Assembly: GCA_964016885.1 (NCBI GenBank) | Contig: OZ024740.1 | Coordinates: forward strand, 303,304,001-303,368,000 | Origin: Eledone cirrhosa | Lineage: Eukaryota | DNA length: 64,000 bases | Direction of reading: 5' to 3' | Part shown: positions 5,129 to 64,000 of the stretch, in pieces | Position numbering within the stretch: position 1 is the stretch's first letter | Layout of the letters: each line of letters begins with the position of its first letter | Position numbers and translations under genes: made by a program | The notes under the pieces: model-generated | What the model was told of the DNA's origin: nothing | The model's database searches: none | Seen by the model: the letters and a program-made list of their open reading frames with translations, nothing else

Positions 5129-6179
5129 TACATTAGGAGGCTTTCACAACATTAAATATGTTTATTTTAGACACCAGGAGCCATTAGTTTAGAAAAGATA
5201 TAAATAAGACAGTGAAAAATGCTGCCTTTCTCAAAACTATTAATAATGTAATTAAAAAGTATTAGAGTATCGAAAGAGATTCTTGGTCTCCATCAGCAGC
5301 GATTTGGGGGTGGGTGTTGACTGGGCAGTGGTCAAAAACACCACAACATTTAATGGGCTCCAAATTAATGTTTTTGCTACTATAAATAATATGCAAGGCC
5401 TCTGATAACCAATAAAATATTCATCCAGGGTCCTCATCCAAGCTTAATCTGCCATAAACTTACTTCTTGTTTTAAATGACACAACAAGAGAAATTTATAG
5501 TGAACTAGTACAGCCTAAGTATATTTATTACAGATAGTGTCTTTAACGACACATACACTGGAATGAAAAACAAAATCAACTTCATTGGGGAATTTGAATT
5601 TGAAATAGTAAGACAGTGAATACCATAATATAAATCAATGTGTACAGTTGTGTGCCAAATGCTCTAACTTCATACACGTTAATAATTAAACATTTGGAGA
5701 TGAGATTAATTATTTAAACAACTTTGATGCAACTCACCTTGCCAACGAGGAAACAGTCTTGCTATTTATAGCACCAATAATCCTTTATCATTTACACTAC
5801 TCTATATTTACTATTGTATTTTTGCAGTAAAGACTTTATCTCACATAATATTGAATCGATGAGATTTTGATGACATTATTATTTATTTTGAGAGCACTCC
5901 CTTAACATCAGTATGTGGGGCCAGTTACAGCCAGTTTGAACAGAATTAAGTGAGAGAATTCTGGCTAAATATGGCCAGTTTAAATGATAAAGGGATAATA
6001 TATATGTGGGAGAGAAAGTATGTGAGTGGGTACTTAAGAACTGAGGCTTAGTGTTTAAGATGCTGGGCTCACAATCATAAAATGGTTAGTTTCATTCTGG
6101 GACAGGAGGATACGTTGTGTCCTTGAGCCAGATACTTTATGATATATTGCTCCAATCCTCCCAGAGATTCTTTCCTGAG

Positions 6180-7290
6180 ACATTCTAACCTCATATCCAT
6201 AGTATCAGATCTGTGAGCTCTCAATTTGGAAAAGTAGCTGCTTTACCTGGAGCAACTGTCTGATCTCTGAGCTATGCACTCTATCAAGTAACATTACTCC
6301 AAAGACCCTTCAGAAGAACCCCATTTCAACTGCTTGTATTCATAATCATATTCTTTCGGTCATTATACAAGATTCATGACCATAGGTAAAGATTGGCATG
6401 AATACCAAATTGAAGATAGCGAGTTTGGTTTGTACACCTTCCTCCCTTCTGCTTACCAGTTGCTGAAGCTGGCACACTACTGCACAAGCTCCTGCAATTC
6501 TTGCACTTAATTCAGCCATTTAGCCTCCTGCCTTCCATCACTCTTGAACATGGCCCCAAGATATTTGAACTTCTCCATCTGCTTCAGTGAAACTCCATTC
6601 ACATGTAGAGTGCACTGTGCAGGCTTCTTGCAGAGGACGAGTGTCTCAGTTTTCATAGCAGTGATTTTCATTCCAGCCATGCAGCACTTGGCATCAAACC
6701 AATCAAGTGCAAGTCAAAGATCACCTTCTGTCGATTTAAGTATTACCATGTCGTCTGTAAATTCCAACAAACAGATTCTACACCTGCCAGTTGTGATACC
6801 ACTTTCAACCCAGCTGCGCAAGTCAGTCCTGTTCATGAAAATAATAACCAGGAGAGGTGACAAAATGCACCCTTAGCAGATTCCAACTTGCATACTGAGT
6901 GGTTTCGATTTAGCACCATTTATCTGAACACAAATACCCGGGCATTCATATAGCGACATCAGGGCAACAAGCAGCTGATCATCGATCCCATACTCATGCA
7001 TAACCTTCTCCAGCAGGTCTCCTGGAACCACAATGATCATCAGCTAGCTTGGATTCAACAATCTCTGTACATCTCCTTGCTAGACACTTAGGATAGACTT
7101 TACCGGAGAGACTTAACAAGGAGATCCCTCTTTAATTGGAGCAATCTCTCTTGTCTCCCTTTTTGAAAATTGGGATTATCACTCCTGATTGCCATTGTTT
7201 AGGTGTCTTTCCAGATATCCAGGCCACCTGGCACACACAAGTCACACACTATTTTCTAGTTAAGGCTTTTAACATCTCAGTCTGAATTTC
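6180..7290 (-). mobile_element. RTE-clade LINE reverse transcriptase fragment (second RTE family)
   Basis: The minus strand reads ...GCILSPLLVIIFMN...LEFTDDMVIL...GMKITAMKTE...EKFKYLG, with stops. Confidence 0.85.
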
Positions 7291-9044: not shown

Positions 9045-9340
9045 TTAATTATTATTGTTATTATTATTGCACATTGTCACTGCTTTCCCGAGCACATATC
9101 TGTGCGCCTTAGGTATGAGCAGTGTAGTTTTTGCTGGTGTTGTTTCTATTGTATTAATAGTACCTTTCGTAGTATGTGTGCAGTGCCTTGTATGTTCTAC
9201 ATATTTGTAAGTCTTAGTGTTTTTGGTTATATATCTGTCTGCATGCTTTTTTTTATCATTCCGAGAGCACCTATTATTATAGATCTTGTTTCTGTTTTCA
9301 TTTTCCACATTCGAGTTATTTCTATCTCTAGATATTTATA
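9045..9340 (-). mobile_element. R4/Dong-like (RLE endonuclease) LINE 3' fragment, left half of an interrupted copy
   Basis: The minus strand reads YKYLEIEITRMWKMKTET..IIIGALGMIKK, followed by an (AAT)n tail. Confidence 0.8.
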
Positions 9341-10449
9341 CCAGATAGAAAAATGCATACAGCAAAAAAAAGTAATATTGTTGGAATATAAACCTTTAAA
9401 AATACAGGACAAGAAACTAAAATAAAACTTTAAAAGAATAGGACAAGAAACTGAGATAAAACTTTAAAAGAATAGGACAAGAAACTAAGATAAAACTTTA
9501 AAGAATTGGACAAGAAATAAAAAATTTTACAATAATATTAGTGGCAAAATTTTTATTGGTAAAAAATCGAGTTTCACATTCATAGGCTCTGGGTTCCACA
9601 TTCAGAGGTCGTCGTCAGACCGGGGGATCATTTGATCCTGGTTTGAACACCAATTGGGCCATAACCATACCCCTATTTCATCATTCGGCGACACGCCTCA
9701 TGTATCATGCATAATGTGAATGGACCCATGGGCCCATGAGCACAGATCTTGAGCAGCAGCGGACGGTCTTGTCGTCCCGCTCATCCTTGATCTTGACCAA
9801 CCCGTCCATCTTCTCCTTGCATCTTTTCCTTGAGTTCAAGTCCGGCAGTCCAGATGAATGCGTGCCACAGCTTTCTGGTACAGGAAGGGGGAGCAGGAGG
9901 ACTGGAGGGATGACGGGACAGAGGGAGGGAGGTGCCGTAGTCGGTGGTCAGAGTCGACATCTTGTCCTGGTCGTCTTCTCCATCTTCGTCTGGTGTTGCG
10001 GGACCAGAAGTGCATTCTTGGAGGAGACCTGCAGCTGCATCGGCCAATTCTTCTTGCAATGGTCATTCTGACGGAGTAGAACTGCTCAGCCAACCAACCC
10101 CAACCAGAACCAACCGCTCAGGGGCAACGCACAATGAGAGCATGACAATTATTATGCATTAATCAAGAAGATACTGGGGCATAGCACAGGAAACGAATAG
10201 AAAAATGTTGCCACTAATATTATTGTAAAATTTTTTATTTCTTGTCCAATTCTTTAAAGTTTTATCTTAGTTTCTTGTCCTATTCTTTTAAAGTTTTATC
10301 TTAGTTTCTTGTCCTATTCTTTTAAAGTTTTATCTTAGTTTCTTGTCCTATTCTTTTAAAGTTTTATTTTAGTTTCTTGTCCTGTATTTTTAAAGGTTTA
10401 TATTCCAACAATATTACTTTTTTTTGCTGTACGCATTTTTCTATCTGGT
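9340..10449. repeat. Long inverted repeat (arms 9340-9547 and 10208-10449) with 34-bp tandem subunits
   Basis: The arms are near-identical reverse complements. The right arm has one extra AGGACAAGAAACTAAGATAAAACTTTAAAAGAAT unit. Confidence 0.95.
9600..10143 (-). pseudogene. GC-rich degenerate coding-like segment of unknown function inside the inverted repeat
   Basis: Abrupt GC rise. ORF 9781-10059 has acidic and Pro/Ser-rich tracts, and the frame continues past single stops on both sides. An AATAAA lies on the minus strand at ~9553. Confidence 0.4.
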
Positions 10450-10721
10450 CTACTATTTTTAAGGCAATGCAAGCAACAACTATCTAATAATTAAATGATC
10501 ATAGTGAATTACTGACAAGTGATTGACATTTTAAAGTTCTTTTGAGTATGATTGCAATCTAGTTGAGGCAACGGGCTTAATGACAAAGCTAGTAAATCAT
10601 GAATGCATTTGAGATGATTAGTGCATAATAGTGAATTGGTGAAACTTGTGCATTTCAATGGTGTTACAACAATAGATGTAAGTTATATAGTAGTAATACT
10701 TTATCATTTTAACTTTTTAGA

Positions 10722-11081
10722 ATGGACAAAAACCCATGCAAAGAAATGACTTTGACTGCAGTGATTCTCTCCAATTTACTTACAAAGCAAAACGTGGTCA
10801 AATACCTTATCATCTCTGATAAAATGCCCATTGAATCACTGAAAATCGGATGCATGGAATTCCTCATAAAATGCACCTATGAATCGGAAGCCATCACATA
10901 TATCAATGGATATAGGGAGTTGTTCACACTGGAAGACCATCACTTCATTTGTGACTTCATCAGTTATCTCCACAATTATCTCAGACACCCAATGCCATTG
11001 ATGAGAGGTGATCCAATGTGTGAGCATGTAACTAATCTTATAGAAGTTGTTATCGACCACCTGGCTTTTAGTGACATTTGA
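10722..11081 (+). CDS. Hypothetical 119-aa protein (element cargo, no recognised family)
   Basis: Open ATG-TGA frame of normal complexity in AT-rich DNA, preceded by a pyrimidine tract and AG (TTTTAACTTTTTAG|AATG), a likely splice acceptor. Confidence 0.5.
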   Translation: MDKNPCKEMTLTAVILSNLLTKQNVVKYLIISDKMPIESLKIGCMEFLIKCTYESEAITYINGYRELFTLEDHHFICDFISYLHNYLRHPMPLMRGDPMCEHVTNLIEVVIDHLAFSDI

Positions 11082-11261
11082 CTGATTTGACTGATAATGA
11101 TGTATTTTTAAAAAGTATGTGTACATTCTTGTTACTATTTTAAGACAATGCAAGCAACAACTATTTAATAAAATTTTAATTTAAAAATGACCATTGTGCA
11201 TTACTAGTATGATGACATTTTATTAAGTCACAAAATTAGTCAGTCAGCCATAGAACAAGGA

Positions 11262-11933
11262 TCAGGTGGCAAAAACATTGGCAAAAATTTGTGTCAATTT
11301 AAGATTTCCAACATTGTTCAAATGAATCATATCTGGTTTGAAGTCAGATTTGTCAAATTTTGACCAATTTTCAATGTTGTGAAGATTGGGCAAGTTCAAT
11401 TTTTGAATCATTTCTTTCATGCAGTAATTAAACTTTTCCAAATGAGAATTTCTCTTGCCCAAGTCATTTTTATTTTCAATTACACTTTGTGGACGTGGAA
11501 TGACACCACTGTAGAAAATGGGTGTACAGTGGTGCTTTTCCGCTATTTTCTGTAGCCTTGCAAAGAGACTCTTCCCCTGTTTTTCCGGTTTTGTGCCTCG
11601 AATGGGCACTTTGTCCTTAATTTACAAATAAATGATTAATATAAAATACTTGGGCAAAAATTATTGTATTACTTTGCACAGCTTTGTAGTGCCAACGCTG
11701 CGACGAGGATTCAGATCATTAGAGCCGACATGAACCACCAATACTTTCACAAAAGAACAACAGATAACAATGTTGGCGATTAACATTACCTGGCCTTGAC
11801 GGGCCCCAGGTATACAAAATATCTAAGTATTTTTGTTGGTATGATAAGTAAATACATTTGAATTAATATTTTTATACCTTCTGGTCATTCTATTTCGCCA
11901 CATTTCTAATTATGGATTTGTAAAAACTGGCAT
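11262..11933 (-). pseudogene. Three-exon SGNH/GDSL-family hydrolase (esterase), disrupted in exon 1
   Basis: Exon 1 11933-11878 (MPVFT/x-SIIRNV; 1-nt frameshift and a TAG). GT-AG intron 11877-11823. Exon 2 11822-11673 (IFCIPGAR...VLVVHVGSNDL). GT-AG intron 11672-11616. Exon 3 11615-11262 (SGVIPR...DMIHLNNVG). Blocks I, II, III and V are in the SGNH order. Confidence 0.8.
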
Positions 11934-12585
11934 GAATGTGAATTTGATCAGTCCAATTGCCCGATTTTAGTGAAAAGTTTTGATTCGAAATGGAAATACT
12001 CCATTTCCGTGCCATGGAAAAAATGAATAAGCCGATCAAAAAGCCGCGAAACATCATTTTTAATTAAGCGAAATTAGTGGATGCAAATCTCAGAAAATAT
12101 TGTACACTATTCGCACCTATCGCACTATTCGCACCTATCGGTACAAAAAATCGCACGACTGTTAATAATACTAGAAGTGCAAACTATCTGTTGAATACCT
12201 GGTATATGAAGAGCAACCGATGCGATCGGTCTTGAAGAAGAATGAAGAATGAAGTGAAATTTTGGTCTGGTTGTTGTCATCGGTGTTTCGCAGAGATGCC
12301 GGCACGAACAAAGGTGTCAGTGACACAAAGTTGTCCGCTTGAACAAAGGTGTCGGTCCGACAAAGGTGTCAGTCAGACAGACAGTCAGACAGTGTCACAG
12401 TCGGTGCGACAAAGCGATCGATGCGACTAAAAAAAATTTACCTCACATGTTTACCTATATTTTCGCAAACTATTGATAGATTGGTACAAAAAATAGCTTT
12501 GATAATAAACATAAATTTTTAACGAAGTATTTAAAAAGCATTTTAGCAGGGAAAAGTGAAGTAATGTTTCACACTGACGCAAGTA

Positions 12586-12709
12586 GGGCCATTCAGAAAT
12601 GACGTAGTCAATTAGGAGGAGGGGATTCGGCGATTTGACTACATTTGACTAATGTAATCACAATCACAAGAGTTCCGCCGAAAAAAATTCGTCATTTCTG
12701 GATGACCCC
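12586..12709. mobile_element. Small MITE-like element (PIF/Harbinger-like TIRs) nested in the Helentron-like element
   Basis: GGGCCATTCAGAAATGACG ... CGTCATTTCTGGATGACCCC, flanked by GTA on both sides. Confidence 0.55.
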
Positions 12710-12995
12710 GTAGAGAGAGAGAGACTCGTAGAGAGAGACCTCCCCTAGCGTCACGCTTACTACTCACTCACTTGAACACAAGATTTATCAGCAAACTTTG
12801 ATTATAAACTTTTTCCCGCTGGACCAAATTTCTAGATTTTTAAGCCAAAAGATGCGTAATGATCTACTGTTCATGCTCATATAAGTTTTATCTCAGTTAA
12901 ATAAAGTAGAGCCGCGCTGTACTGTCGTAAACAGATGATTGCCAACGAAAACATGACTACAACAATATTACTAAACGGACTACCGTCCGTTTAGG

Positions 12996-13110
12996 ATTTG
13001 GAGAGTTTGTTTTTCTTTGTGGTCTTTGACTATATCTGGTCAGTTGGCCTTGATCTCTCTGTCTGTATGTATTGGAATATCCTAGAGAATGGTTGCTTTG
13101 TCATTCTCTG
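12996..13110 (-). mobile_element. R4/Dong-like LINE fragment, right half of the interrupted copy
   Basis: The minus strand reads ENDKATIL*DIPIHTDREIKAN*PDIVKDHKEK...KLSK, collinear with 9045-9340. Confidence 0.8.
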
Positions 13111-13136
13111 ATTATTATTATTATTATATTTGGAGA

Positions 13137-13327
13137 GTGGATTGGCAGTATCGGTAGAGGGTCGGACGCCATGCTTTTCAGTATAGAGTTACGGCCCTTT
13201 ACCATCTGAGTTCAAATCCCATTGAGGTTAACTTTGCCTTTCATCCTTGTGGGGTCGATAAAATAAAGCTCCAGTAATGCACTAGGGTTATTGCTGGCCT
13301 TGTGCTAAAAGTAGAAACAATTATTAT
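13137..13327 (+). mobile_element. SINE family A
   Basis: Homologous to 1067-1256. Confidence 0.9.
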
Positions 13328-13797
13328 ATTTGGAGAGTTTATCCTTTTTCTTGGTAGAAATGTTGCCATGGGTATTATTTTTTTTTTTTTCTGTTATTAT
13401 AATCATTTTCCTTTGATACCTGTATATTCACTTGCATCTCACCAGGCCTCAACTAGGGGCCTGGGTTGGGTTAAGTGAGGGTTTGTTATGTCACATTTAT
13501 CCAGCTCCATAGATAACTGATTGTTATAAAATATATAATGGATAAACTGCACCATTTTGTCCATGGGTACAATATGGTTTGCCCTCCCAACATTACATTG
13601 GCAATGCTCTTCACAAAATGTGGGCAGTACTAGTAAGTATGATTTTTTAAAATTTCTATTATACAAGGTGTACCTGGCACTTGATCCAAGAGTTTGTTAA
13701 TTCCCTTGTTTATCAGGACCAGTCCCCATCTACAACTGGAATAGTGGTAGCCTTCATACCCAACATGTTTTCAATCTCTATTTCAAGATATATTATT

Positions 13798-14460
13798 AGA
13801 GATGCACGTGGGGTGACAAGACTGTCCTGCATGCACTTGTCCAGTGTCCGAGTATTGCTGACTTGTGGGTTTATGTCGAACATCTGCTATCGCATGTAGG
13901 ACGGATCTGGCTATCAGCTGAGTCCATCATGAAGATTTTCCCGGCAGGCAATTTTTATCTGCCTGGTAGCCTTGGTGAAATGGTGGATGCATCTGAAAGG
14001 GTTCAAGATGGGCATTTTCCTCTTTGGCGAGGCCCTCGTTAAATTTTTCAGGTTTCAACTGAAAAGGAAAATCCTTCTCCACCTTGATTTTCCTTTTCAG
14101 TTGAAACCTGAAAAATTTAACGAGACAGTTTGTTGAAAGGTGGGTAAGATAGGCAAGAATGACCCTTGTGAATGGGCCTGCTCTGAGTGTGTGTCTGTAG
14201 TATTGTAGGACAACTGGGAGAGGGTACTTACCCTAGCAGTCAGGGTGACCGTGACTTTTGAGGTCTTTCTCCACGAGTAACCCTCAGCTGTCTCCCCACT
14301 ATTGAGAATTTTTCCTTTGTTTCCATTTTTTTTTTGTTACATCTTTTGTTTTTGATTCCTTTTATTTTACATGCAGAAACCCATATTTGTACCGTCCTGT
14401 GCTGTCCTTAATATATTTTTTTTGTAAACCCTTTGTGGTTAATAAAGAAATCATTATTAT
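13798..14460 (+). mobile_element. Tx1/L1-like LINE 3' end (zinc-knuckle region plus 3' UTR)
   Basis: Translation RCTWGDKTVLHALVQCPSIADLWVYV...FFRFQLKRKI; ends in AATAAAGAAA plus an ATT tail. Confidence 0.7.
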
Positions 14461-21980: not shown

Positions 21981-23044
21981 CATATAATTAATTATTAAAA
22001 CTTAAACAATTTGAATAAAAATTTTATATAAGAAATATTTCATTAGTTTTACACTGATGGAATTCATCAAAATTAAAAGACTAGAAAAATACTCAAATAA
22101 TTTACTATAACTCTCATGTTGTTATTTTTAGTCACATCAATGAGACATATTTTGACCAATTGTTTCACTCTTTATAATTTGACAACTATATTACTGATTA
22201 TCTAATTTGGTACAATTATTTCATTAATGTCGGCATAACTACTACTTGAAATAATTCTTTTGTTTCTAAGTAACTATTTGGGAAGATTATTGCTGAAAAC
22301 TATCCTATAATTCCAACATTTTTGTCTAATTATAGAAAATATATATGCAAGAGTCAACAACAAACATATCATAATTATCACCATTTAATGTCTGCTTTCT
22401 GTGCTAACAAGTATTTGAGAGGTTGTGAAAGACCAAGTCAGAATGTAATCAGAGCTACAAACTTCTCAGAGTGGCCGCAGGCATGCATCTTGCTTACATG
22501 TTTCCACACTCTACCAAGGGCACCAAATTCATTTTAATGTAGCACTAGTACTAGGGAAGTTGTCATGTTCCCAAACCTTTGTTTAACAAGTTTTCTATGG
22601 CTGTATGCCCTTCCTATCATCACAAAACACACATACATACGCACATTTATATATATATACAGAATGAGAAAGATCTGCAGTGCTGAAACCAAAGAGATCA
22701 TGGGAGATATGTAATATCCTGACTGCGGTGACAAACGTTTCGGTTTGTGTGTTCAGCAAGCCATCCAGGGTGTAAGACTTGCTGAACACACAAGGCGAAA
22801 CCAATCAGCACCACAGTCAGGATTATGGCTATATATATATACATATATATATATGTGTGTATATATATAGGTGTAGAGGTGCAAGATAATTGCATCTGTA
22901 GGCGGTATGCCGGGTGAGCACTCAATGCTCTTGCAGAGCAGAGTATCAATAGTATTAGAATAAAAGAACAAAGAAACAGTGTTGCATCATAACATATTTA
23001 GTATGTTATGATGCAATACTGTTTCTTTGTTCCTTTATTCAATA

Positions 23045-23454: not shown

Positions 23455-24148
23455 TCGCAAAAGTGAAACTAATTTTTGACGACAATTACGTACGTCATTA
23501 CTTTCAATTTGGATTGTGAATTTGTTTGTTTTTTTACAACAGGTCTCAATAGTGAAAGTGAATTTTGTTGATGGTGTTAATTAGTATTGCGTGTACGTGA
23601 TAATTTTTTTTTATTCTTTTTTTGTGTATTGTGTGTACGGAAAATTTTTTTTTAAATAATGACATTGTGTGTTGAAATAAATAAATATTGAAAATCCTTA
23701 TTTAAATAATGACATTGTGTGTTGAAAGAAAGAAATATTGAAAATCCTTATTTAAATAATGACATTGTGTGTTGAAATAAATAAATATTGAAAATCCTTA
23801 AATATTGAAAATAAGGATTTTCATAAGGTACGTCAATTTATATTTTATATGCAACAAACGTATAACTATGTAGTTATTTTTTTTTTTTTAATTTATTTAT
23901 TTCTTTCAACACACAATGTCATTATTTTTAAAAAAAATTTCCGTACACACAATACACAAAAAAAGAAAAAAAAAAAAATATCACGTACACGCAATACTAA
24001 TTAACACCATCAAAAAAATTCACTTTCACTATTGAGACCTGTTGTAAAAAAACAAACAAATTCACAATCCAAATTGAAAGTAATGACGTACGTAACTGTC
24101 AAAAATTAGTTTCACTTTTGCGACCGGCCGTTTTGACATATGCCCCTT
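23455..24148. mobile_element. Foldback/MITE-like element with ~230-bp inverted arms and internal ~51-bp tandem repeats
   Basis: 23455-23686 is the reverse complement of 23891-24123; three copies of TTAAATAATGACATTGTGTGTTGAAATAAATAAATATTGAAAATCCTTA. Confidence 0.8.
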
Positions 24149-31169: not shown

Positions 31170-31460
31170 GATTGTTAGCAGCCCATCTGAGAAAGAAACC
31201 CCACGAGGTGGGGTGGATGTTGCAGTGGGTGTCGCTGGCCACTGTCCGCAAAAATGCCTTTGCTGTTTTGTCTGCGGGACTCAGACTAAACACCGCCCCG
31301 ACCTATATGTAGAGTCTGCTAAACTATCCTCTTCCCTTTCTTCTATGGCCACATATTCCTGGCTTTTTCCCTCCTTTCCCTCTCATTTATGGCATTTATA
31401 GCCCTTTCTCCTACTTTCCTATACAGTCAGATCTGCCCTTCTTTACCCAGTCCCCCTTCT
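31170..31460 (+). mobile_element. CRE-like (RLE) non-LTR retrotransposon 3' fragment
   Basis: HEVGWMLQWVSLATVRKNAFAVLSAG resembles the C-terminal 'FLFQRxSxAIQRGNA' motif of RLE-bearing elements. Confidence 0.55.
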
Positions 31461-31834
31461 GTTCATTGTTTGGTTTTGTTTTCATCCTTTTGTAAATACT
31501 TTTTCTTTCATATTTCCGTCAATATTTGTAATGCTATTTATACAACTGTGAATTGATTTATTGCCTATAATTTTATTTTCTTAAAAAAAAAAAAAAAAAA
31601 ACTGGACTGATGACTGTATAAAAATATAAATAGTGATGGTAGAGTGAGACGTTTGGCATAAGTATGTTTTCCTGGTTCGATGCGAGATGAATTAAAGTTC
31701 TTTTGAAGCTACACATGTAGTGTGAAAGCAGAATTTTGTTGGGGTAAAAATAAGAGAAATAAATATCTGTAACTTGGTTGAATATAGATATGCCAACACC
31801 AGGTTAAACATATAGAAAAAGAAAGCAGCATTGA

Positions 31835-32130
31835 AAGGACTATAAATGCCATAAATGAGAGGAAAAGGAGAAATCAAGGTCTATTAGAGAATGGAAGAAA
31901 GAAAGGGGGGAAGGGGAGAGGGTGACAGACTCTACACCTAGGTCAGAGCGGTGCTTTCGCTGCGCCCTGCGGACAAAAGAGCAAAAGCAATTCCGTGGAC
32001 AATGGCCAGCGACACCCACTGCAACAGCCACCCCATCTCGTGGGCCTCCTTTCTCAGACGGGCTGTAATCGAGGACGCCTGAGGTCTCGACAGCGACCGG
32101 TGCAAAGAGGAAGCAGCCAGATAACTCAAA
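31835..32130 (-). mobile_element. CRE-like (RLE) non-LTR retrotransposon 3' fragment
   Basis: LFAPVAVETSGV plus EMGWLLQWVSLAIVHGIAFALLSAG. Confidence 0.6.
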
Positions 32131-36546: not shown

Positions 36547-37442
36547 CATTAAACAAAATAAGTACATCCTTGGGACATTAAGAGAAGAGAGGCACCATTT
36601 TATTTAAATCAATTGTATTTGTCACTTCCCTCCCCAAATTGTTATGCAGACTTTATATATGGGGTGGGGAGGAGGCACCAAATTCTTTTTAAGTGCTTAT
36701 GGCCTCAAAAGGACTTAATCCAAATGTGCAAGAGAAAGAACCCAAAATGTTGCAGTTAGCAGTGCTCATTCATGAAATTCATTAACTCTAAGCAGAGTAT
36801 TCCAACAAACTGTCTTGGCATTTACTATTTGTAACTGCTCTCTTAGGCATGACCTCAGCTATTCACACTTGATATGCTGATGATAGGAACATATCAAAAG
36901 TCCTAATGGTGTTAAGACATCAAGGACAAATATTATGGAGAAGTAGTAGACTGATGAAAATAGCATGCAATTTAATACTGGGCATTTTAAACATTTTGCT
37001 ATGTATCCTCTTATTCATACATCCAAGATACAATTCCAGAATCATAATCAGTTTGTGATCTGTGGTCTAAAATGAGTAATGTATTTGAATAGTGTAGTTA
37101 ATATGAAGTATTGTGAGATATGTAGTAAAAGACTGATAAATGTTTTTTTTTAAGCCGGTACAATGCAGTAGAAAAATACAAAGGGCAAATGATCACAAAT
37201 AAAACAAAACAAAGTAATGTTTTAGCCAGTGTATTTTAATATAGTATTTCATGGGCTATTACCCTCCTCTCAGATGTGAAGCTGAAACAGTCCAAGACAA
37301 AACAAACGATCAGAGTTTTCTTCCCCAAGTTAGAGAGGAAAACTCTGATCAAGCAAAAGTCAAAAGCCATGACTATTCCTTGTTTTTTTCACATATAATG
37401 TATCTAGCATTACATTATCAAATCGGTTCTGTTTATTCCTTA

Positions 37443-37680
37443 GTCCTTTCATGACTGCATTTCCAATGAAATACACTCCATTTCAATTAATTAATTAAGA
37501 ATTTTAAGGGATTTACTTAAATAATTAATTATTTCATTATTAAGATAGTAACTTAATGTAAGGTTCTTATATAAAATTATGCTGGAAGATTTAAATTTAA
37601 ATTAGAAAGCTTTAAAATGGGTGGCTTTATTTCATAGAACTACAGCCAGTTTTGACCGTATTGGATAATAAAAGGGTTAA
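37443..37680. mobile_element. piggyBac-like MITE
   Basis: CCTTTCATGACTGCATTT...AAAGGGTTAA; homologous to 53176-53398. Confidence 0.65.
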
Positions 37681-37796
37681 GTAGTGTGTTAATGCTTGAT
37701 CAGTTGTTATCATTTGCTCTTCAGATTTTTCTATGGCATTTGCTCTTCAGATTTTTATCGGCGAATTTATTATTTTATGCTTATATTATTACTAAG

Positions 37797-37978
37797 GGCG
37801 GTGAATGGCAGTATCGGTAGAGGGTCGGACATACTTTCCAGCATAGTTACGTCCCTTTACGATCTGAGTTCAAATCCCGCCGAGGTTGACTTTGCCTTTC
37901 ATCGGGTCGATAAAATAAAGTACCAGTAATGCACTGGGTAATTGCTGGCCTTGTGCCAATAGTAGAAACAATTATTAC
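37797..37978 (+). mobile_element. SINE family A
   Basis: Homology to 1067-1256. Confidence 0.88.
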
Positions 37979-38331
37979 TAAGATGGCAATAACATACAGA
38001 AGACTTGTAAAATGGATTTTGAAAATATTTGATCATGCTGGTCGTGTAGAAGACATTTTTCCACATTTGCCTGGGTTATTGCTCCTACATTGAGCTGTGT
38101 TGTGCATGTTTACTATGTCCTGGGTGTCAGCCAATAACAGTACTGTAAAGTAGGGGTGGAGGTAATTACCACCTAACAAACATACAGCAACATGCAGTAA
38201 ACAACATCACCACATAGCTACAGATGTATTAAATATAGAAAACCATGCTTTCTTTTCTTTTCATGCCATATCATGTCTGATGATTGGCAAATATGTGATG
38301 AAGTTATGACGTGTGTATGTATGTACTTTCA

Positions 38332-38570
38332 TCATTATCACTTTTACATTCATTTTTCCACACTTGGCACCAGTTGGATGGGTCCTTTTCAGCACAGCAT
38401 CTCTCCACACATTGTGATCCCTTGTCACCTCTTCTGTGAGTTTCAGCAATTTCATATCAGCTCTCACCACTTCTGCCAAGGTCTTCCTTGGCCTTCTACT
38501 GGGATTTCTTGACACTTATTCACCCAGGGATCACCGTTCATGCGCATCACTTGTCCATACCATCAACATA
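38332..38570 (-). mobile_element. RTE LINE 3' fragment
   Basis: WYGQVMRM...RRPRKTLAEVVRADMK. Confidence 0.8.
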
Positions 38571-38859
38571 TTTTTTTCATACACAGAGCCTTGTTAGCAA
38601 GGCATTATAACAAATGATTTTAATGACAACACTGCAACCATATATCAGTACAGTTTCATGTAGGGACATGTTCCTATTGTGGGGCAACAGAGACACACAG
38701 GTGAATCAAGTGTCTCATTAGAGCCAGTCTTTCCTCAAATTATGGATCCATGGCAGTCATTAGAGTGTCCAATTAAAAATATTTCAGTATTTGTTCCAGC
38801 TCACTTCACTTAATCTAGAAATAACTGCCAAATTTGCCTCAAGTTACACTCTACTAAAT

Positions 38860-39092
38860 AATTTTGTTACCAACCCAGCCAAAACTGGCTCTGGTTCTAT
38901 GAAATAAAACCACCCATTTTAAAGGTTTCCAATTAATTTAAAATTTCCAGCAAAATTTTATATAAGAACCTTACATTAAGTTACTATCTTAGTAATGAAA
39001 TAATTAATAATTTAAGTAAATCCCTCAAAATTCATCATTAATTAATTGAAATAGTGTGTATTTCATTAGAAATGAAGTCATGAAAGGGTTTA
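38860..39092. mobile_element. piggyBac-like MITE, inverted relative to 37443-37680
   Basis: Reverse-complement homology; ends ...CATGAAAGGGTTTAA. Confidence 0.65.
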
Positions 39093-40194
39093 AGAATATG
39101 CAGAACCCATTTGATAATGTAATGCTAGATACATTATATCTGAATAAGTAGTCATAGCTGGAAGGCTTTTGATCATAGGTTTGCATCATCCGAGTTGACC
39201 TGGATCTAAACTACAGCAACAAACCTTTGTTAGCAACACATGTGTACAGCCACCGGAAATAACATCTGTGAAATAAACAGCTCCATCTATCTGCTTAGCT
39301 AGCTACCTCACCGTGAAACAACCAACCCTTAAAGCCACCAAAATAAAACACCTACGCAGCGGCTAAACATCAAATGATTATTTTTGTATAAATAGAGTGA
39401 TTCCAAACACTTTCGCCAGTCGGCCTTTGGCAGAGTCAGCTCACGTATCGTTGTTCCTCTCCTCTGCCACATTTGTCACTCACACACGCCTTGTACCTCT
39501 GTATCGTCGCTTCATTTATGAAAATATATAGCTGACCGAAACTACATCTCTCGCCTTGCTCGTCCTTTCAACTTGTGCTTTCGTCTGTTCATCCTTATCG
39601 TATGAGACAACAGTCCTTTTAAGGGCTACCCTCAGATCCGATCAGACTGTATGCAATAACAGTCCTTTTAAGGGCTATTCTCAGATCTGATCAGAAGTAG
39701 CGACCATGTTAGACTGCACAATATCATTTTCAACCAGGCAGAGCTATAATATATCTAGTGCACTGAATCTGATAGGTCAGCAATTTCCAGCCTTTTAGCA
39801 CCATGACCCATTTTGGTAAATCAGTAAACTTCCAAAGCCTTTTTTTAAATATTCAAATAAAAAACAATTTGCAAAAAAATAGAATTAAATCAACATTTAA
39901 TAATTTTCACAGAGAAGTATTCCTCCTCCTTCTTCTCCCTCCTCCTTCTTTTCCTTGTCCTTATTCCACTTATTCCTGAGAGGTCGTGGGGGCTGAGTCC
40001 TCAAACATTCATTTCAGAGGGTCTCGTCAGAAGCTACTGGATCCCCAAGCGAGACCAGTTAAACTCATGGATGTTATCCAACCACCTTGCTCAGGGTCTA
40101 CCCCTGGGTCTCCTTCAGGTTGGTTTTGCCCTGAGTCTCCTGCCAGTTTTTGTTTTTAGAAAACGTTATGTCTATAGCTTTCATTTCATTTCAT

Positions 40195-42608: not shown

Positions 42609-45600
42609 ACATGTTCTGGTGTGTGGTCATACCACTTCTTCACATGTTTTGGTGTGTGGTCATACCACTTCTTCACATGTTTTGGTGTGTGGTCATACCA
42701 CATCTTCACATGTTCTGGTGTGTGGTCATACCACTTCTTCACATGTTCTGGTGTGTGGTCATACCACATATTCACATGTTCTGGTGTGTGGTCATACCAC
42801 ATCTTCACATGTGCTGGTGTGTGGTCATACCACATCTTCACATGTTCTGGTGTGTGGTCATACCACATCTTCACATGTTCTGGTGTGTGGTCATACCACA
42901 TTTTCACATGTTTTGGTGTGTAGTCATACCATATCTTCACATGTTCTGGTGTATGGTCATACTACTTCTTCACATGTTTTGGTGTGTAGTCATACCACAT
43001 CTTCACATGTTCTGGTGTGTGGTCATACCACTTCTTCACATGTTTTGGTGTGTGGTCATACTACTTCTTCACATGTTTTGGTGTGTAGTCATACCACATC
43101 TTCACATGTTCTGGTGTGTGGTCATACCACATTTTCACATGTTTTGGTGTGTAGTCATACCATATCTTCACATGTTCTGGTGTATGGTCATACTACTTCT
43201 TCACATGTTTTGGTGTGTAGTCATACCACATCTTCACATGTTCTGGTGTGTGGTCATACCACTTCTTCACATGTTCTGGTGTATGGTCATACCACTTCTT
43301 CACATGTTTTGGTGTGTGGTCATACCACTTCTTCACATGTTCTGGTGTGTGGTCATACCACATCTTCACATGTTCTGGTGTGTGGTCATACCACATCTTC
43401 ACATGTTCTGGTGTGTGGTCATACCACATTTTCACATGTTTTGGTGTGTAGTCATACCACATCTTCACATGTTCTGGTGTGTGGTCATACCACTTCTTCA
43501 CATGTTCTGGTGTATGGTCATACCACTTCTTCACATGTTTTGGTGTGTGGTCATACCACTTCTTCACATGTTCTGGTGTGTGGTCATACCACATCTTCAC
43601 ATGTTCTGGTGTGTGGTCATACCACATTTTCACATGTTTTGGTGTGTAGTCATACCACATCTTCACATGTTCTGGTGTATGGTCATACTACTTCTTCACA
43701 TGTTTTGGTGTGTAGTCATACCACATCTTCACATGTTCTGGTGTGTGGTCATACCACTTCTTCACATGCTTTATGTGTGGTCATACCACTTCTTCACATG
43801 TTCTGGTGTGTGGTCATACCACTTCTTCACATGTTTTGGTGTGTGGTCATACATCTTCACATGTTCTGGTGTGTGGTCATACCACATTTTCACATGTTTT
43901 GGTGTGTAGTCATACCACATCTTCACATGTTCTGGTGTATGGTCATACTACTTCTTCACATGTTTTGGTGTGTAGACATACCACTTCTTCCCATGTTTTG
44001 GTGTGTGGTCATACCACTTCTTCACATGTTCTGGTGTATGGTCATACTATTTCTTCACATGTTTTGGTGTGTAGTCATACCACATCTTCACATGTTCTGG
44101 TGTGTGGTCATACCACTTCTTCATATGTTTTGGTGTGTGGTCATACCACTTCTTCACATGTTCTGGTGTGTGGTCATACCACTTCTTCACATGTTTTGGT
44201 GTGTGGTCATACCACATCTTCACATGTTCTGGTGTGTGGTCATACCACATTTTCACATGTTTTGGTGTGTAGTCATACCACATCTTCACATGTTCTGGTG
44301 TATGGTCATACTACTTCTTCACATGTTTTGGTGTGTAGACATACCACATCTTCACATGTTCTGGTGTGTGGTCATACCACATCTTCACATGTTCTGGTGT
44401 GTGGTCATACCACTTCTTCACATGTTTTGGTGTGTGGTCATACCACATCTTCACATGTTTTGGTGTGTGGTCACCACTTCTTCACATGTTCTGGTGTGTA
44501 GTCATACCACATCTTCACATGTTCTGGTGTGTGGTCATACCACTTCTTCACATGTTCTGGTGTGTGGTCATACCACTTCTTCACATGTTTTGGTGTGTGG
44601 TCATACCACTTCTTCACATGTTTTGGTGTGTGGTCATACCACATATTCACATATTCTGGTGTGTGGTCATACCACTTCTTCACATGTTTTGGTATGTGGT
44701 CATACTACTTCTTCACATGTTCTGGTGTGTGGTCATACCATATCTTCACATATTCTGGTGTGTGGTCATACCACATCTTCACATGTTTTGGTATGTGGTC
44801 ATACCACATCTTCACGTGTTTTGGTGTGTGGTCATACCACTTCTTCCCATGTTTTGGTGTGTGGTCATACCACATCTTCACATGTTTTGGTGTGTGGTCA
44901 TACCACTTCTTCCCATGTTTTGGTGTGTGGTCATACCACATCTTCACATGTTTTGGTGTGTGGTCATACTACTTCTTCACATGCTTTATGTGTGGTCATA
45001 CCACATCTTCACATGTTTTGGTGTGTGGTCATACCACTTCTTCACATGTTTTGGTGTGTGGTCATACCACATCTTCACATGTTTTGGTGTGTGGTCATAC
45101 CACTTCTTCACATGTTTTGGTGTGTGGTCATACTACTTCTTCACATGCTTTATGTGTGGTCATACCACTTCTTCACATGTTTTGGTGTGTGGTCATACCA
45201 CTTCTTCACATGTTCTGGTGTGTGGTCATACCACTTCTTCACATGTTCTGGTGTGTGGTCATACCACATTTTCACATGTTTTGGTGTGTGGTCATACTAC
45301 TTCTTCACATGCTTTATGTGTGGTCATACCACTTCTTCACATGTTTTGGTGTGTGGTCATACCACATCTTCACTTGTTTTGGTGTGTAGTCATACTACTT
45401 CTTCACATGTTCTGGTGTGTGGTCATACTACTTCTTCACATCTTTTGGTGTGTAGACATACCACATCTTCACATGTTCTGGTGTGTGGTCATACCACATG
45501 TTCTGGTGTGTGGTTATACTACGTCTTCACATGTTTTGGTGTGTGGTCATACCACATCTTCACATGTTCTGGTGTGTGGTTATACTACGTCTTCACATGT

Positions 45601-46750
45601 TCTGGTGTGTGGTCATACCACTTCTTCACATGTTTTGGTGTGTGGTCATACCACATATTCACATATTTTGGTGTGTGGTCATACCACTTCACATGCTTTG
45701 GTATGTGGTCATACCACTTCTTCACATGTTCTGGTGTGTGGTCATACCACATCTTCACATGTTCTGGTGTGTAGTCATACCACATCTTCACATGTTTTGG
45801 TGTGTGGTCATACCACTTCTTCACATGCTTTGGTATGTGGTCATACCACTTCTTCACATGTTCTGGTGTGTGGTCATACTACATCTTCACATGTTCTGGT
45901 GTGTGGTCATACCACATCTTCACATGTTCTGGTGTGTAGTCATACCACATCTTCACATGTTTTGGTGTGTGGTCATAACACTTCTTCACATGTTTTGGTA
46001 TGTGGTCATACCACATCTTCACATGTTTTGGTGTGTGGTCATACCACTTCTTCCCATGTTTTGGTGTGTGGTCATACCACTTCTTCACATGTTTTGGTGT
46101 CTGGTCATACTACTTCTTCACGTGCTTTGTGTGTAGTCATACCACTTCACATGTTTTGGTGTATGGTCATACCACATCTTCACATGTTTTGGTAGGTGGT
46201 CATACCACATCTTCACATGTTTTGGTGTGTGGTCATACCACTTCTTCACATGTTTTGGTGTGTGGTCATACCACATCTTCACATGTTTTGGTGTGTGGTC
46301 ATACTACTTCTTCACATGTTCTGGTGTGTGGTCATACCACATCTTCACATATTCTGGTGTGTGGTCATACTACTTCTTCACATGTTTTGGTGTGTGGTCA
46401 TACTACTTCTTCACGTGCTTTGTGTGTGGTCATACCACTTCTTCACATGTTTTGGTGTGTGGTCATACCACATCTTCACATGTTTTGGTGTGTGGTCATA
46501 CTACTTCTTCACATGTTCTGGTGTGTGGTCATACCACATCTTCACATGTTCTGGTGTGTGGTCATACCACTTCTTCACATGTTCTGGTGTGTGGTCATAC
46601 TACTTCTTCACATGTTTTGATGTGTGGTCATACCACATCTTCACATGTTCTGGTGTGTGGTTATACTATGTCTTCACATGTTCTGGTGTGTGGTTATACT
46701 ACGTCTTCACATGTTCTGGTGCGTGGTTATACTACGTCTTCACGTGTTCA
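42609..46750. repeat. 33-bp minisatellite array, ~125 units (CACATGTTYTGGTGTGTGGTCATACCACWTCTT)
   Basis: 11-aa periodicity in all frames (CGHTTSSHVLV, MFWCVVIPHLH). Confidence 0.98.
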
Positions 46751-59045: not shown

Positions 59046-59634
59046 ACTGTAATATAATAATGATTACTGATTTAGGCACAAAGCCAACAATTTGGGTGGG
59101 GGTAGGGGAAAGTCGATCAAGCCCAGTGTGTTACTGGTGCTTATTCTTATAGTAATACCATCTCCAATATAAGTAGTAGTAGTAGTAATTTTCATACATA
59201 ATGATTTTAAATTTAGACACAATACCATAGATTTGAGGGGAGGAAAGTCGATTATTCAACCCCCAGTACTTTACTGGTACTTTATTTTATTGACCACGGA
59301 AGGATGAAATGCAAAGTTGACCTCGGTGAGCCTTGACCTCAGAATGAAAAGAGCCAAAACAAATACTGCAATAGTATTTTATCTGATGCCCTAGTAACAC
59401 TCAAGGGGGTGGAGGTCAACTTTGCCTTTCATTCTTTCGGGGTTGATAATAAAAAGTACCAGTTTAGTACTGGGCTTCATTCTTCCTCTATATATCTTTC
59501 TCCACTTCCTTTCTCTCAGTATTTATCCTTCTCTGGAAGAAATCTACTCTATTCAGATCTGGAGAGATGGGCTCCGTCAGGTTTATAAATGCCCTAGAAA
59601 CGCTGTATGTCAATATGACACTCCTATGACTCAC

Positions 59635-61280
59635 AGTGTTGTAGTAATAACAACAATGTTGTAGTAATAACAAGTGTTGTAGTAATAACAACAACAGTTG
59701 TAATAATAACAACAGTGTTGTAGTAATAACAACAACAGTTGTAGTAATAACAACAGTGTTGTAGTAATAACAACAATGTTGTAGTAATAACAAGTGTTGT
59801 AGTAATAACAACAACAGTTGTAATAATAACAACAGTGTTGTAGTAATAACAACAACAGTTGTAATAATAACAACAGTGTTGTAGTAATAACAACAACAGT
59901 TGTAGTAATAACAACAGTGTTGTAGTAATAACAAGTGTTGTAGTAATAACAACAATGTTGTAGTAATAACAACAGTGCTGTAGTAATAACAACAATGTTG
60001 TAGTAATAACAAGTGTTGTAGTAATAACAAGTGCTGTAGTAATAACAACAATGTTGTAGTAATAACAACAGTGCTGTAGTAATAACAACAGTGTTGTAGT
60101 AATAACAACAATGTTGTAGTAATAACAGCAGTGTTGTAGTAATAAGTGCTGTAATAACAGCAGTGTTGTAGTAATAAGTGCTGTAATAACAACAGTGTTG
60201 TAGTAATAAAAACAGTGTTGTAGTAATAAAAACAGTGTTGTAGTAATAACAACAATGTTGTAGTAATAAGTGTTGTAGCAATAACAACAATGTTGTAATA
60301 ATAACAACAATGTTGTAGTAACAACAATGTTGTAGAAATAACAAAGGTGTTGTAGTAATAACAAGTGTTGTAGTAATAACAACAGTGTTGTAGTATTAAC
60401 AACAGTGTTGTAGTAATAACAACAGTGTTGTAGTAATAACAACAATGTTGTAGTAATAACAAGTGTTGTAGTAATAACAAGTGCTGTAGTAATAACAACA
60501 ATGTTGTAGTAATAACAACAGTGCTGTAGTAATAACAACAGTGTTGTAGTAATAACAACAATGTTGTAGTAATAACAGCAGTGTTGTAGTAATAAGTGCT
60601 GTAATAACAACAGTGTTGTAGTAATAAAAACAGTGTTGTAGTAATAACAACAATGTTGTAGTAATAAGTGTTGTAGTAATAACAACAATGTTGTAGTAAT
60701 AAGTGTTGTAGCAATAACAACAATGTTGTAATAATAACAACAATGTTGTAGTAACAACAATGTTGTAGAAATAACAAAGGTGTTGTAGTAATAACAAGTG
60801 TTGTAGTAATAACAACAGTGTTGTAGTATTAACAACAGTGTTGTAGTAATAACAACAGTGTTGTAGTAATAACAACAGTGTTGTAGTAATAACAACAGTG
60901 TTGTAGTATTAACAACAGTGTTGTAGTATTAACAACAGTGTTGTAGTATTAACAACGGTGTTGTAGTATTAACAACAGTGTTGTAGTATTAACAACGGTG
61001 TTGTAGTAATAACAATGGTGTTGTAGTAATAACAGTGTTGTAGTAATAACAACAGTGTTGTAGTAATAACAACAGTGTTGTAGTAATAACAACAGTGTTG
61101 TAGTAATAACAGTGTTGTAGTAATAACAACGGTGTTTTAATAACAATGGTGTTGTAGTAATAACAACAATGTAGTAATAACAGTGTTGTAGTAACAACAA
61201 CGGTGTTGTAATAACAACGGAGTTGTAGTAACAACGGAGTTGTAATAATAACAACAGTGTAGTAACAACAGCAGTGTTAT
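59635..61280. repeat. Degenerate ~17-23-bp satellite (GTGTTGTAGTAATAACAACA)n
   Basis: Tandem array; it explains the low-complexity ORFs at 59488-61254. Confidence 0.97.
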
Positions 61281-62760: not shown

Positions 62761-63399
62761 TGATAACAACAGTGTTTTAGTAACAACAACAGTGTAGTAG
62801 TAACAACACTTACAATAATGGTTTCTGATTTAGGCACAATCCCAACAAATATGTGGAGAGAGAAAAGTTGATTAAATCGACCTCAGTACTTAACTGGTAC
62901 TTTATTTTATCAACCCTGTAATCTAACCCGGCAGTATTTAAACTCAGAACATAAGGGCTATAACTACTGCCAATCCACTGCCCTATAACAACAGTGTTAC
63001 AATAATTAAAGCAATGTTATAAGAGTAGTATTTATGAATGATATAGGACATTACAAGCTGAAATTTGAAATAGAAAAGAACAATAGGTCCTACTGCTGGA
63101 ATTAAAACCATGTATCAATCACTTGCTAGGTGACTGCTTAACTAATTACATATCAAAGTATTTGCTGTTCCATATTCTCAAATTAGGTCCTACAAATCAT
63201 TCCTGCTATGTTAACAGTTAACATAGCAGGAATAATTTGAGAAGATGAGATGGTATGTACTCTGTAATGTAATCAGAAATGTAGATCCCTGGAAAAAGAT
63301 TAAACAATATGTGGTTTGAATCTTATCTGTGTGTCTGAAATTGGTATTTATTTGTACTGCTGTTTCATATTATTTACATTAAGATCTCAGTAGTTAATT

Positions 63400-63575
63400 A
63401 ATGGTTTCCAATTTAGGGACAAGGTTAACGATTATAATGACACAAGTATTAGATTGGTACTTTATTTTATCAACCCTGGAAGGTAATGTTGGCCATGGTG
63501 AGGCTTGGACTCTGAACATAAGGAACTGGAACAAATACCACAAAGCATTTTATCTGTGGCTCTACTAATTCTCCA
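63400..63575 (-). mobile_element. SINE family A, diverged copy leading into a satellite
   Basis: GGTACTTTATTTTATCAACCCTGGAAGG... and a degenerate 5' head. Confidence 0.6.
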
Positions 63576-64000
63576 ATCCAACACTCTTCTGCCAATCCAA
63601 TACTCTTATTCCAATCCAACACTCTTCTGCCAATCCAACACTCTTCTGCCAATCCAATACTCTTATTCCAATCCAACACTCTTCTGCCAATCCAACACTC
63701 TTCTGCCAATCCAACACTCTTCTACCAATCCAACGCTCTTCTGCCAATCCAACGCTCTTCTGCCAATCCAATGCTCTTCTGCCAATCCAACGCTCTTCTG
63801 CCAATCCAACGCTCTTCTGCCAATCCAACGCTCTTCTGCCAATCCAACGCTCTTCTGCCAATCCAACGCTCTTCTGCCAATCCAATGCTCTTCTGCCAAT
63901 CCAACGCTCTTCTGCTAATCCAACACTCTTCTGCCAATCCAACGCTCTTCTGCCAATCCAACGCTCTTCTGCCAATCCAACGCTCTTCTGCCAATCCAAC
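63571..64000. repeat. 19-bp satellite (TCCAACGCTCTTCTGCCAA)n, running off the window end
   Basis: 19-aa periodicity (3 x 19 nt) in the ORF track. Confidence 0.97.

Follow-up and report, generated by a model that had tools for sequence, protein, structure and literature searches.

A predicted spliced SGNH-type esterase gene inside a putative non-autonomous Helitron-like element

Esterases of the SGNH/GDSL type are encoded by mobile elements of more than one kind. The ORF1 esterase of ZfL2-1 (PDB 4C1B; Schneider et al. 2013, PMC3905857) is reported to act slowly, to bind to acidic liposomes and not to be required in a cell assay. Its landmark residues are S143, G165, H191, N195, S228, D279 and H282 (numbering of PMC3905857), two of which, H191 and S228, are reported as conserved only among transposon-encoded esterases (PMC3905857). 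The original prediction for the locus described here named CR1, L2 and RTEX retrotransposons as the home of such enzymes; this holds, but SGNH/GDSL ORFs are also described in Penelope-like, Terminon and LTR elements (PMC3905857, PMC5408684, PMC6431247). In the published descriptions of bdelloid Terminons and Vesta LTR elements, the GDSL ORF is a stand-alone accessory ORF of a kind that unrelated mobile elements have in common, as is proposed here (PMC5408684, PMC6431247). Both, however, are retroelements with a reverse transcriptase, and hammerhead motifs are described for Terminons; neither feature was found at this locus.

Among DNA transposons, multi-intron SGNH genes beside Helitrons are already known from fish. 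These Texim genes count up to 15 exons, lack a reverse transcriptase and, in several fish, have a Helitron next to them (Tomaszkiewicz et al. 2014, PMC4021074; guppy copies in PMC7643365), and their authors offer two hypotheses: that the gene helps transposition, or that it is cargo (PMC4021074). The novelty originally implied for a stand-alone spliced SGNH gene in a DNA element is therefore not upheld. The present locus shares with Texim an intron-containing SGNH gene, the lack of a reverse transcriptase and the association with a Helitron. By description, which is the level at which the two were compared, the 15-exon TeximY is placed next to a Helitron coding region or around it, and the association is reported only in fish, whereas the gene here has three coding exons, introns of 55–57 nt and a position inside a complete 3.7-kb non-autonomous element. 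What is new is such a compact gene with tiny introns in a fully delimited non-autonomous element with mixed ends. Texim is the only SGNH–Helitron association found in the literature covered, which includes work on mollusc transposable elements (PMC10294476); Repbase entries, subscription papers and supplements lie outside that scope and could hold another. The main text of a HELIANO survey of 404 genomes never mentions SGNH, GDSL, esterase or lipase.

TC and CTRR ends with an A/T target (insertion between A and T) are the mark of canonical Helitrons (PMC11417382, PMC4067079). In the HLE2-reverse type, described as FoHeli3-5 and the proto-Helentron, a 5′ hairpin stands upstream of the left inverted repeat, there is no 3′ hairpin, and an asymmetric inverted repeat of 13–16 bp lies about 20–40 bp from the 3′ end (PMC5148889, PMC11417382, PMC4067079).

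The window, meaning the whole 64-kb stretch of DNA that was analysed, is 37% GC, repeat-rich and animal-like. Taken as a whole, the locus is somewhat more probably than otherwise a recent non-autonomous Helitron-like copy that carries, as an accessory gene, a spliced SGNH esterase from the transposon pool. The gene is modelled as follows.

11878..11933, minus strand: exon 1, 56 nt; block I, with the presumed catalytic Ser codon at 11916-11914
11823-11877, minus strand: predicted intron 1, 55 nt, GTATAA..TTAG, phase 0, 18.2% GC
11673..11822, minus strand: exon 2, 150 nt; block II Gly at 11807-11805, transposon-type His at 11732-11730, block III Asn at 11720-11718
11616-11672, minus strand: predicted intron 2, 57 nt, GTAATA..TAAG, phase 0, 17.5% GC
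11262..11615, minus strand: exon 3, 354 nt; candidate transposon-type Ser at 11510-11508, catalytic Asp at 11333-11331, His at 11324-11322, and the stop

Joining the three exons, with both joins in phase 0, gives an SGNH model of 186 codons in which S-IIRNV, PGAR, HVGSND and DMIH follow one another, and an AATAAA signal lies downstream of the exon 3 stop at 11224-11219 (minus strand). The two tiny phase-0 GT-AG introns, the product of about 186 amino acids and the ordered SGNH blocks of the original prediction are all recovered in this model. The ordered pattern of blocks II, III and V, formulated post hoc with the sequence already seen, occurs once in the window and in none of 150 Markov-simulated windows, across which the block III motif alone occurs once.

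The predicted introns are poor in G (3 and 5 G) and have a GC content of 17.5–18.2%, against 34–44% in the exons, and the lone AG of intron 1 is its 3′ end. Retention of intron 2 leaves two in-frame TAA codons, with intron 1 left in the reading frame is lost on the way from the Ser to block II, and removal of intron 1 sets the spacing from Ser to Gly at 18 residues, against 22 in ZfL2-1. Comparably intron-like spans (50–64 nt, GC at most 20%, the 20 nt ahead of the acceptor free of AG; thresholds set post hoc) number 21 in the window over both strands. Splicing of both introns is a prediction from sequence, since no close homologue was found; and because the model exceeds ZfL2-1 by 18 residues in the interval from the Asn to the second Ser, homology does not fix the equivalence with S228 or the acceptor of intron 2, for which an alternative is conceivable near 11577.

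Exon 3 has no match at E≤0.001 among 1.84 billion representatives, and its one candidate in a set of 5.8 billion was not accepted, nor was any of 10 candidates for the read-through of exons 2 and 3 or the single one for exon 2 against longer proteins. The weak records from plasmids (3) and phages (13) include none that covers 80% of the query and none annotated as SGNH. In prokaryotic genomes one of 74 stretches passed (L001) and was rejected: the match is short, centres on one word of 8 residues and lies in a protein read as unrelated.

The reading of the product as an SGNH-type esterase is supported by several lines of sequence evidence, each of them weak and all jointly consistent. The SGNH residues S, G, N and D-x-x-H are present in four ordered blocks, with the residue before the Ser masked by a lesion, and the gaps between landmarks are 18/25/4/51/59/3, against 22/26/4/33/51/3 in ZfL2-1. 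By alignment, H191 has its equivalent in the His that precedes the block III Asn by four residues. The candidate equivalent of S228 lies 51 residues past the Asn, against 33 in ZfL2-1, and outside the aligned part of 4C1B. The profile matches foreseen in the original prediction were found in part: against Pfam, exon 3 matches Lipase_GDSL_3 (E=0.0031, 18.3 bits against a cut-off of 27) and the read-through of exons 2 and 3 matches GDSL_3 and GDSL_2 (E=0.0078 and 0.079; 17 and 13.9 bits), along with one unrelated family at 0.022, but no match of these two sequences reaches a curated cut-off. Against the PDB, the same read-through finds the ZfL2-1 esterase 4C1B at E=0.23, second of seven matches behind an unrelated protein; the alignment takes in blocks II, III and V, and exon 2 corresponds to residues 30–72 of 4C1B. 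SGNH proteins are absent among the seven PDB matches of exon 3 alone. In the Atlas, where the query was exon 3 only and hence without blocks I–III, the nearest entries are unnamed eukaryotic clusters (0.95 and 0.93), and all 10 of the best family-assigned matches fall within the GDSL family or clan. A single-sequence fold model is of low confidence (pLDDT 41.5) and has no Foldseek match at E≤0.001; the SGNH esterase CrmE10, at ranks 15 and 25 with E of 0.13–0.18, was discarded as non-significant. The claim that this is an SGNH-type gene is thus supported by motifs together with weak but consistent Pfam, 4C1B and Atlas matches.

The likeness to the ZfL2-1 enzyme lies in blocks II, III and V, the landmark spacing, the H191 equivalent and an Ile directly after the Ser, as at the gating residue I144 of ZfL2-1. 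It differs in having no preceding coiled coil by eye, no ORF2 or reverse transcriptase, about 18 extra residues after block III, introns and an inactivated gene, and the match itself stands at E=0.23. The gene does not read as a LINE ORF1: the frames of the element give no reverse-transcriptase or endonuclease match, and an intronless reading runs into stops or a frame shift.

The copy was originally described as dead through two lesions, of which one is firm. The TAG at 11892-11890 (minus strand) falls between the Ser and intron 1. The 1-nt frameshift, in contrast, is required only if translation starts at ATG 11933, since ATG 12057 reaches the same Ser in frame. A deletion of 1 nt just upstream of the Ser codon in exon 1 is probable, and the frameshifted reading appears to give a better block I than the reading from ATG 12057; an assembly error at the deletion is conceivable. 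The open frame from ATG 12057 (11890-12057, minus strand) begins, by eye, with a hydrophobic stretch resembling a signal peptide, and matches nothing in Pfam or NCBIfam.

The gene was also placed inside an element mobilised at the DNA level, and the ends of that element can be defined.

9341..12996, minus strand: whole insertion, putatively non-autonomous and Helitron-like, 3,656 bp; 5′-TC...CTGG-3′ between A and T
12971..12994, minus strand: perfect 5′ terminal hairpin, 10-bp stem and 4-nt loop, 2 nt from the end
12960..12972, minus strand: 5′ copy of a 13-bp asymmetric (sub)terminal inverted repeat, immediately past the hairpin
9371..9383, plus strand: second copy of this repeat, on the 3′ side, at 30 nt from the element end
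10406-10418: third copy of the 13-bp inverted repeat, in the inner fold-back arm
12883..12898, minus strand: 16-bp motif, an inverted match to 9449-9464 inside 34-bp subterminal tandem repeats
12997..13100, minus strand: upstream half of the interrupted LINE-like remnant; the downstream half lies at about 9060-9340

The translation of the remnant breaks off near 12997 and picks up at 9340, so that it is interrupted at one point, and when the insertion is removed in silico the remnant reads continuously. We take the remnant to be a LINE on the strength of its motifs; it has no Pfam match, and related fragments lie at 13324-13355 and 13725-13865 (weak E-values). Three adjacent registers restore the same flanking reading, which leaves the end positions ambiguous by 1 nt and makes the target A/T or T/A depending on register. 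The signature of TC and CTRR ends between A and T is met by 50 of 200,000 random breakpoint pairs when three registers and both strands are allowed. The uninterrupted target word is present twice nearby. The window has three perfect hairpins of this kind; the 5′ hairpin, which is among them, was equalled in folding by 1 of 200 shuffles. The 13-bp repeat stands at offsets 24 and 30, a word of that kind being common to 3 of 2,000 random pairs of 60-nt sequences. The 16-bp motif is possibly a protein-binding site.

The ends combine features of two Helitron types. With canonical Helitrons (HLE1) the element shares the 5′ TC, the 3′ CTRR, the A/T target (with the 1-nt register ambiguity) and the lack of a duplication; it differs in that the HLE1 hairpin of 16–20 nt about 11 nt before the 3′ end is not evident, while subterminal inverted repeats and a 5′ hairpin are present. 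HLE2 and HLE2-reverse elements have asymmetric inverted repeats of 12–16 bp, one of which adjoins a terminal stem-loop, comparable to the 13-bp repeat and the hairpin at 12971-12994. The usual HLE2 target is T/T (not established for FoHeli3-5), whereas it is A/T or T/A here. As described, FoHeli3-5 and the proto-Helentron are fungal or oomycete and autonomous (TGCCT..CTCCTGT; TT..CTAG), whereas this element is non-autonomous, has TC..CTGG at A/T, and is further set apart by a 1.1-kb 3′ fold-back and the esterase gene. To judge by sequence, the architecture of the ends resembles HLE2-reverse, with the terminal letters and target of canonical Helitrons. Neither the frames of the element nor the other long ORFs scanned in the window yielded a RepHel remnant, and the element occurs only once in the 64 kb, so the class is read from the ends. 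A further 24 long ORFs gave no credible Pfam match; together with those scanned earlier they form a subset of the 54 ORFs of the window, chosen outside tandem and low-complexity repeat frames. With good confidence, the locus is a non-autonomous rolling-circle (Helitron-like) element; as it carries no RepHel gene, it would have been moved in trans by an autonomous partner.

Other repeats surround the element. An abundant SINE-like family of about 210 bp (13110-13330 and 12 other long matches), whose end carries the target word of the element, may belong with mollusc repeats. A decayed reverse-transcriptase-like remnant at about 6100-7250 (minus strand) is assumed from its motifs to be of RTE type. 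Tandem arrays occupy 42609-46748 (33 bp, 126 copies), 59633-61264 (20 bp, 86 copies) and 63569-64000 (19 bp, 23 copies, running off the end of the window), and further inverted repeats of fold-back or MITE-like kind, with two perfect hairpins of 15–16 bp, lie at 23481-24100, 37385-39147, 31179-32065, 22982-23016 and 63199-63233.

Besides the esterase gene, the element contains the following parts.

9341..9554, minus strand: outer arm of the fold-back, which is the 3′ terminus with its 34-bp tandem repeats
10201..10448, plus strand: inner arm, an inverted copy of the 3′ terminus that likewise ends in CTGG followed by T
9555..10200, no strand assigned: unique loop of the fold-back, G+C-rich (about 50–65% in places), unlike the rest of the element
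11133..11222, minus strand: direct repeat 1, after the esterase gene; 76% identical over 94 columns to 10451-10533, and 94% in a 34-nt core
10451..10533, minus strand: direct repeat 2, abutting the inner fold-back arm
10534..11132, minus strand: possible second, decayed cassette with an open frame at 10839-11072

The two arms enclose a fold-back of 1.1 kb (9341-10448) and agree at 211 positions with three mismatches and one extra 34-bp unit in the inner arm; since they differ at only 3 of 214 sites, the fold-back is young. The direct repeat of about 85 bp closes each cassette in the manner of a shared 3′ processing signal or a former terminus. The open frame of the second cassette has a GC content of 46/28/45% by codon position; the cassette has no credible family match, with an Atlas score (0.80) at chance level, and neither it nor the loop resembles the esterase model. 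The loop has no Pfam match in seven frames. Over the element as a whole, none of the 16 frames in or beside it has a credible Pfam match, NCBIfam gives nothing credible for seven peptides, and five Rfam matches at E≤5 were rejected, all being far below gathering scores. The 5′ part of the element, at 12159-12710, contains an imperfect inverted repeat (12586-12620/12674-12708) whose folding was equalled by none of 200 shuffles. It also has 17-nt repeats accompanied by a GTCA/GACA microsatellite (12308-12391), an arrangement suggestive of DINE/HINE elements, and a 40-nt span at 12198-12159 that may be a GT-AG intron.

In the proposed history, a recent copy of the non-autonomous element would have inserted at A/T and split the LINE-like remnant. 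The fold-back would be a recent inverted duplication of the 3′ end, arising by strand switch or by self-insertion; for Helitrons of fungi, insertion of the element into itself in the opposite sense has been put forward (PMC5148889). The compact spliced esterase gene would be drawn from the transposon esterase pool (CR1/RTEX/Penelope type) and most likely served the parent family as an accessory gene, a role that the slow, membrane-binding and dispensable ZfL2-1 enzyme fits. By analogy with ZfL2-1, intact copies may encode an acyl-esterase that works slowly, attaches to acidic membranes and might aid transport of the element or its germ-line transmission. The present copy being disabled, the enzyme would either not be needed in cis or have decayed after insertion.

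The original prediction left the choice between an accessory gene and a captured host gene, and capture is the weaker of the two. On that account the Helitron-like carrier is the same, and the esterase is a host SGNH gene, Texim-like or other cellular, that was taken up passively, has decayed ever since and never served the element. Helitrons do capture host sequence, Texim-like genes are described without Helitrons in amphioxus, sea urchin and Oikopleura (PMC4021074), the esterase copy is broken, and the unrelated cassette and G+C-rich loop look like more captured pieces. Capture is nevertheless unlikely. The His, and probably the Ser, that are conserved only among transposon esterases are present, which favours the transposon pool; the gene is whole from block I to the stop and poly(A) signal, and capture of a full gene is termed exceptionally rare; and no host parent emerged from the homologue searches, although these returned no relatives at all.

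Still less probable is an account without rolling-circle movement, in which terminal inverted repeats, long and degenerate, mark a cut-and-paste transposon, or in which the fold-back 9341-10448 and a piece of 2.5 kb are separate insertions side by side. In the inward direction both ends do read CC, a patchy alignment joins the 5′-most 200 nt to the 3′ arm, and 9341-10448 is a near-perfect fold-back with tandem repeats of its own. However, no target duplication of 2 nt or more is present at either set of ends, and the terminal hairpin is a Helitron-like feature; the 13-bp and 16-bp motifs link the 5′ end to the 3′ arm, and the LINE-like remnant is cut at a single point. The least probable account, to which very little weight is given, is a retro-mobilised fragment of a Penelope-like or Terminon element with a GDSL ORF and an inverted terminal repeat: such elements retain introns and are known to encode esterases, and the lack of a target duplication would suit them, but the ends are precise (TC/CTRR at A/T), no hammerhead ribozyme was found by Rfam or by a motif test (one core match, with a stem II of 0 bp), and the frames scanned have no reverse-transcriptase or GIY-YIG match. 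A Penelope-like donor for the esterase gene itself is possible.

Mixed termini, with HLE1 letters in an HLE2-reverse layout, would be missed or misread by Helitron finders that work from the ends. A single dead copy by itself proves little. As a test case the element is far simpler than Texim: it measures 3.7 kb, its ends are exact, its gene has a single domain, and its copies lend themselves to collection and to tests of selection and expression. Such tests bear on the open question of why an SGNH esterase is retained by so many mobile elements of unrelated kinds (PMC3905857, PMC5408684, PMC4021074). If the host is an invertebrate, the fish-specific claim for the SGNH–Helitron association, as made in PMC4021074, would need revising. 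A more speculative proposal, which has the odds against it, is that the locus represents an undescribed animal family of HLE2-reverse-like Helitrons with TC/CTRR ends, in which a spliced transposon-type esterase is a stable component maintained by purifying selection. If that is true, the transfer of the esterase module from retroelements to rolling-circle DNA transposons would have happened on two occasions, or else long before the fishes, and the esterase would be a general membrane-related accessory factor across both classes of mobile element rather than a fish-specific captured testis gene.
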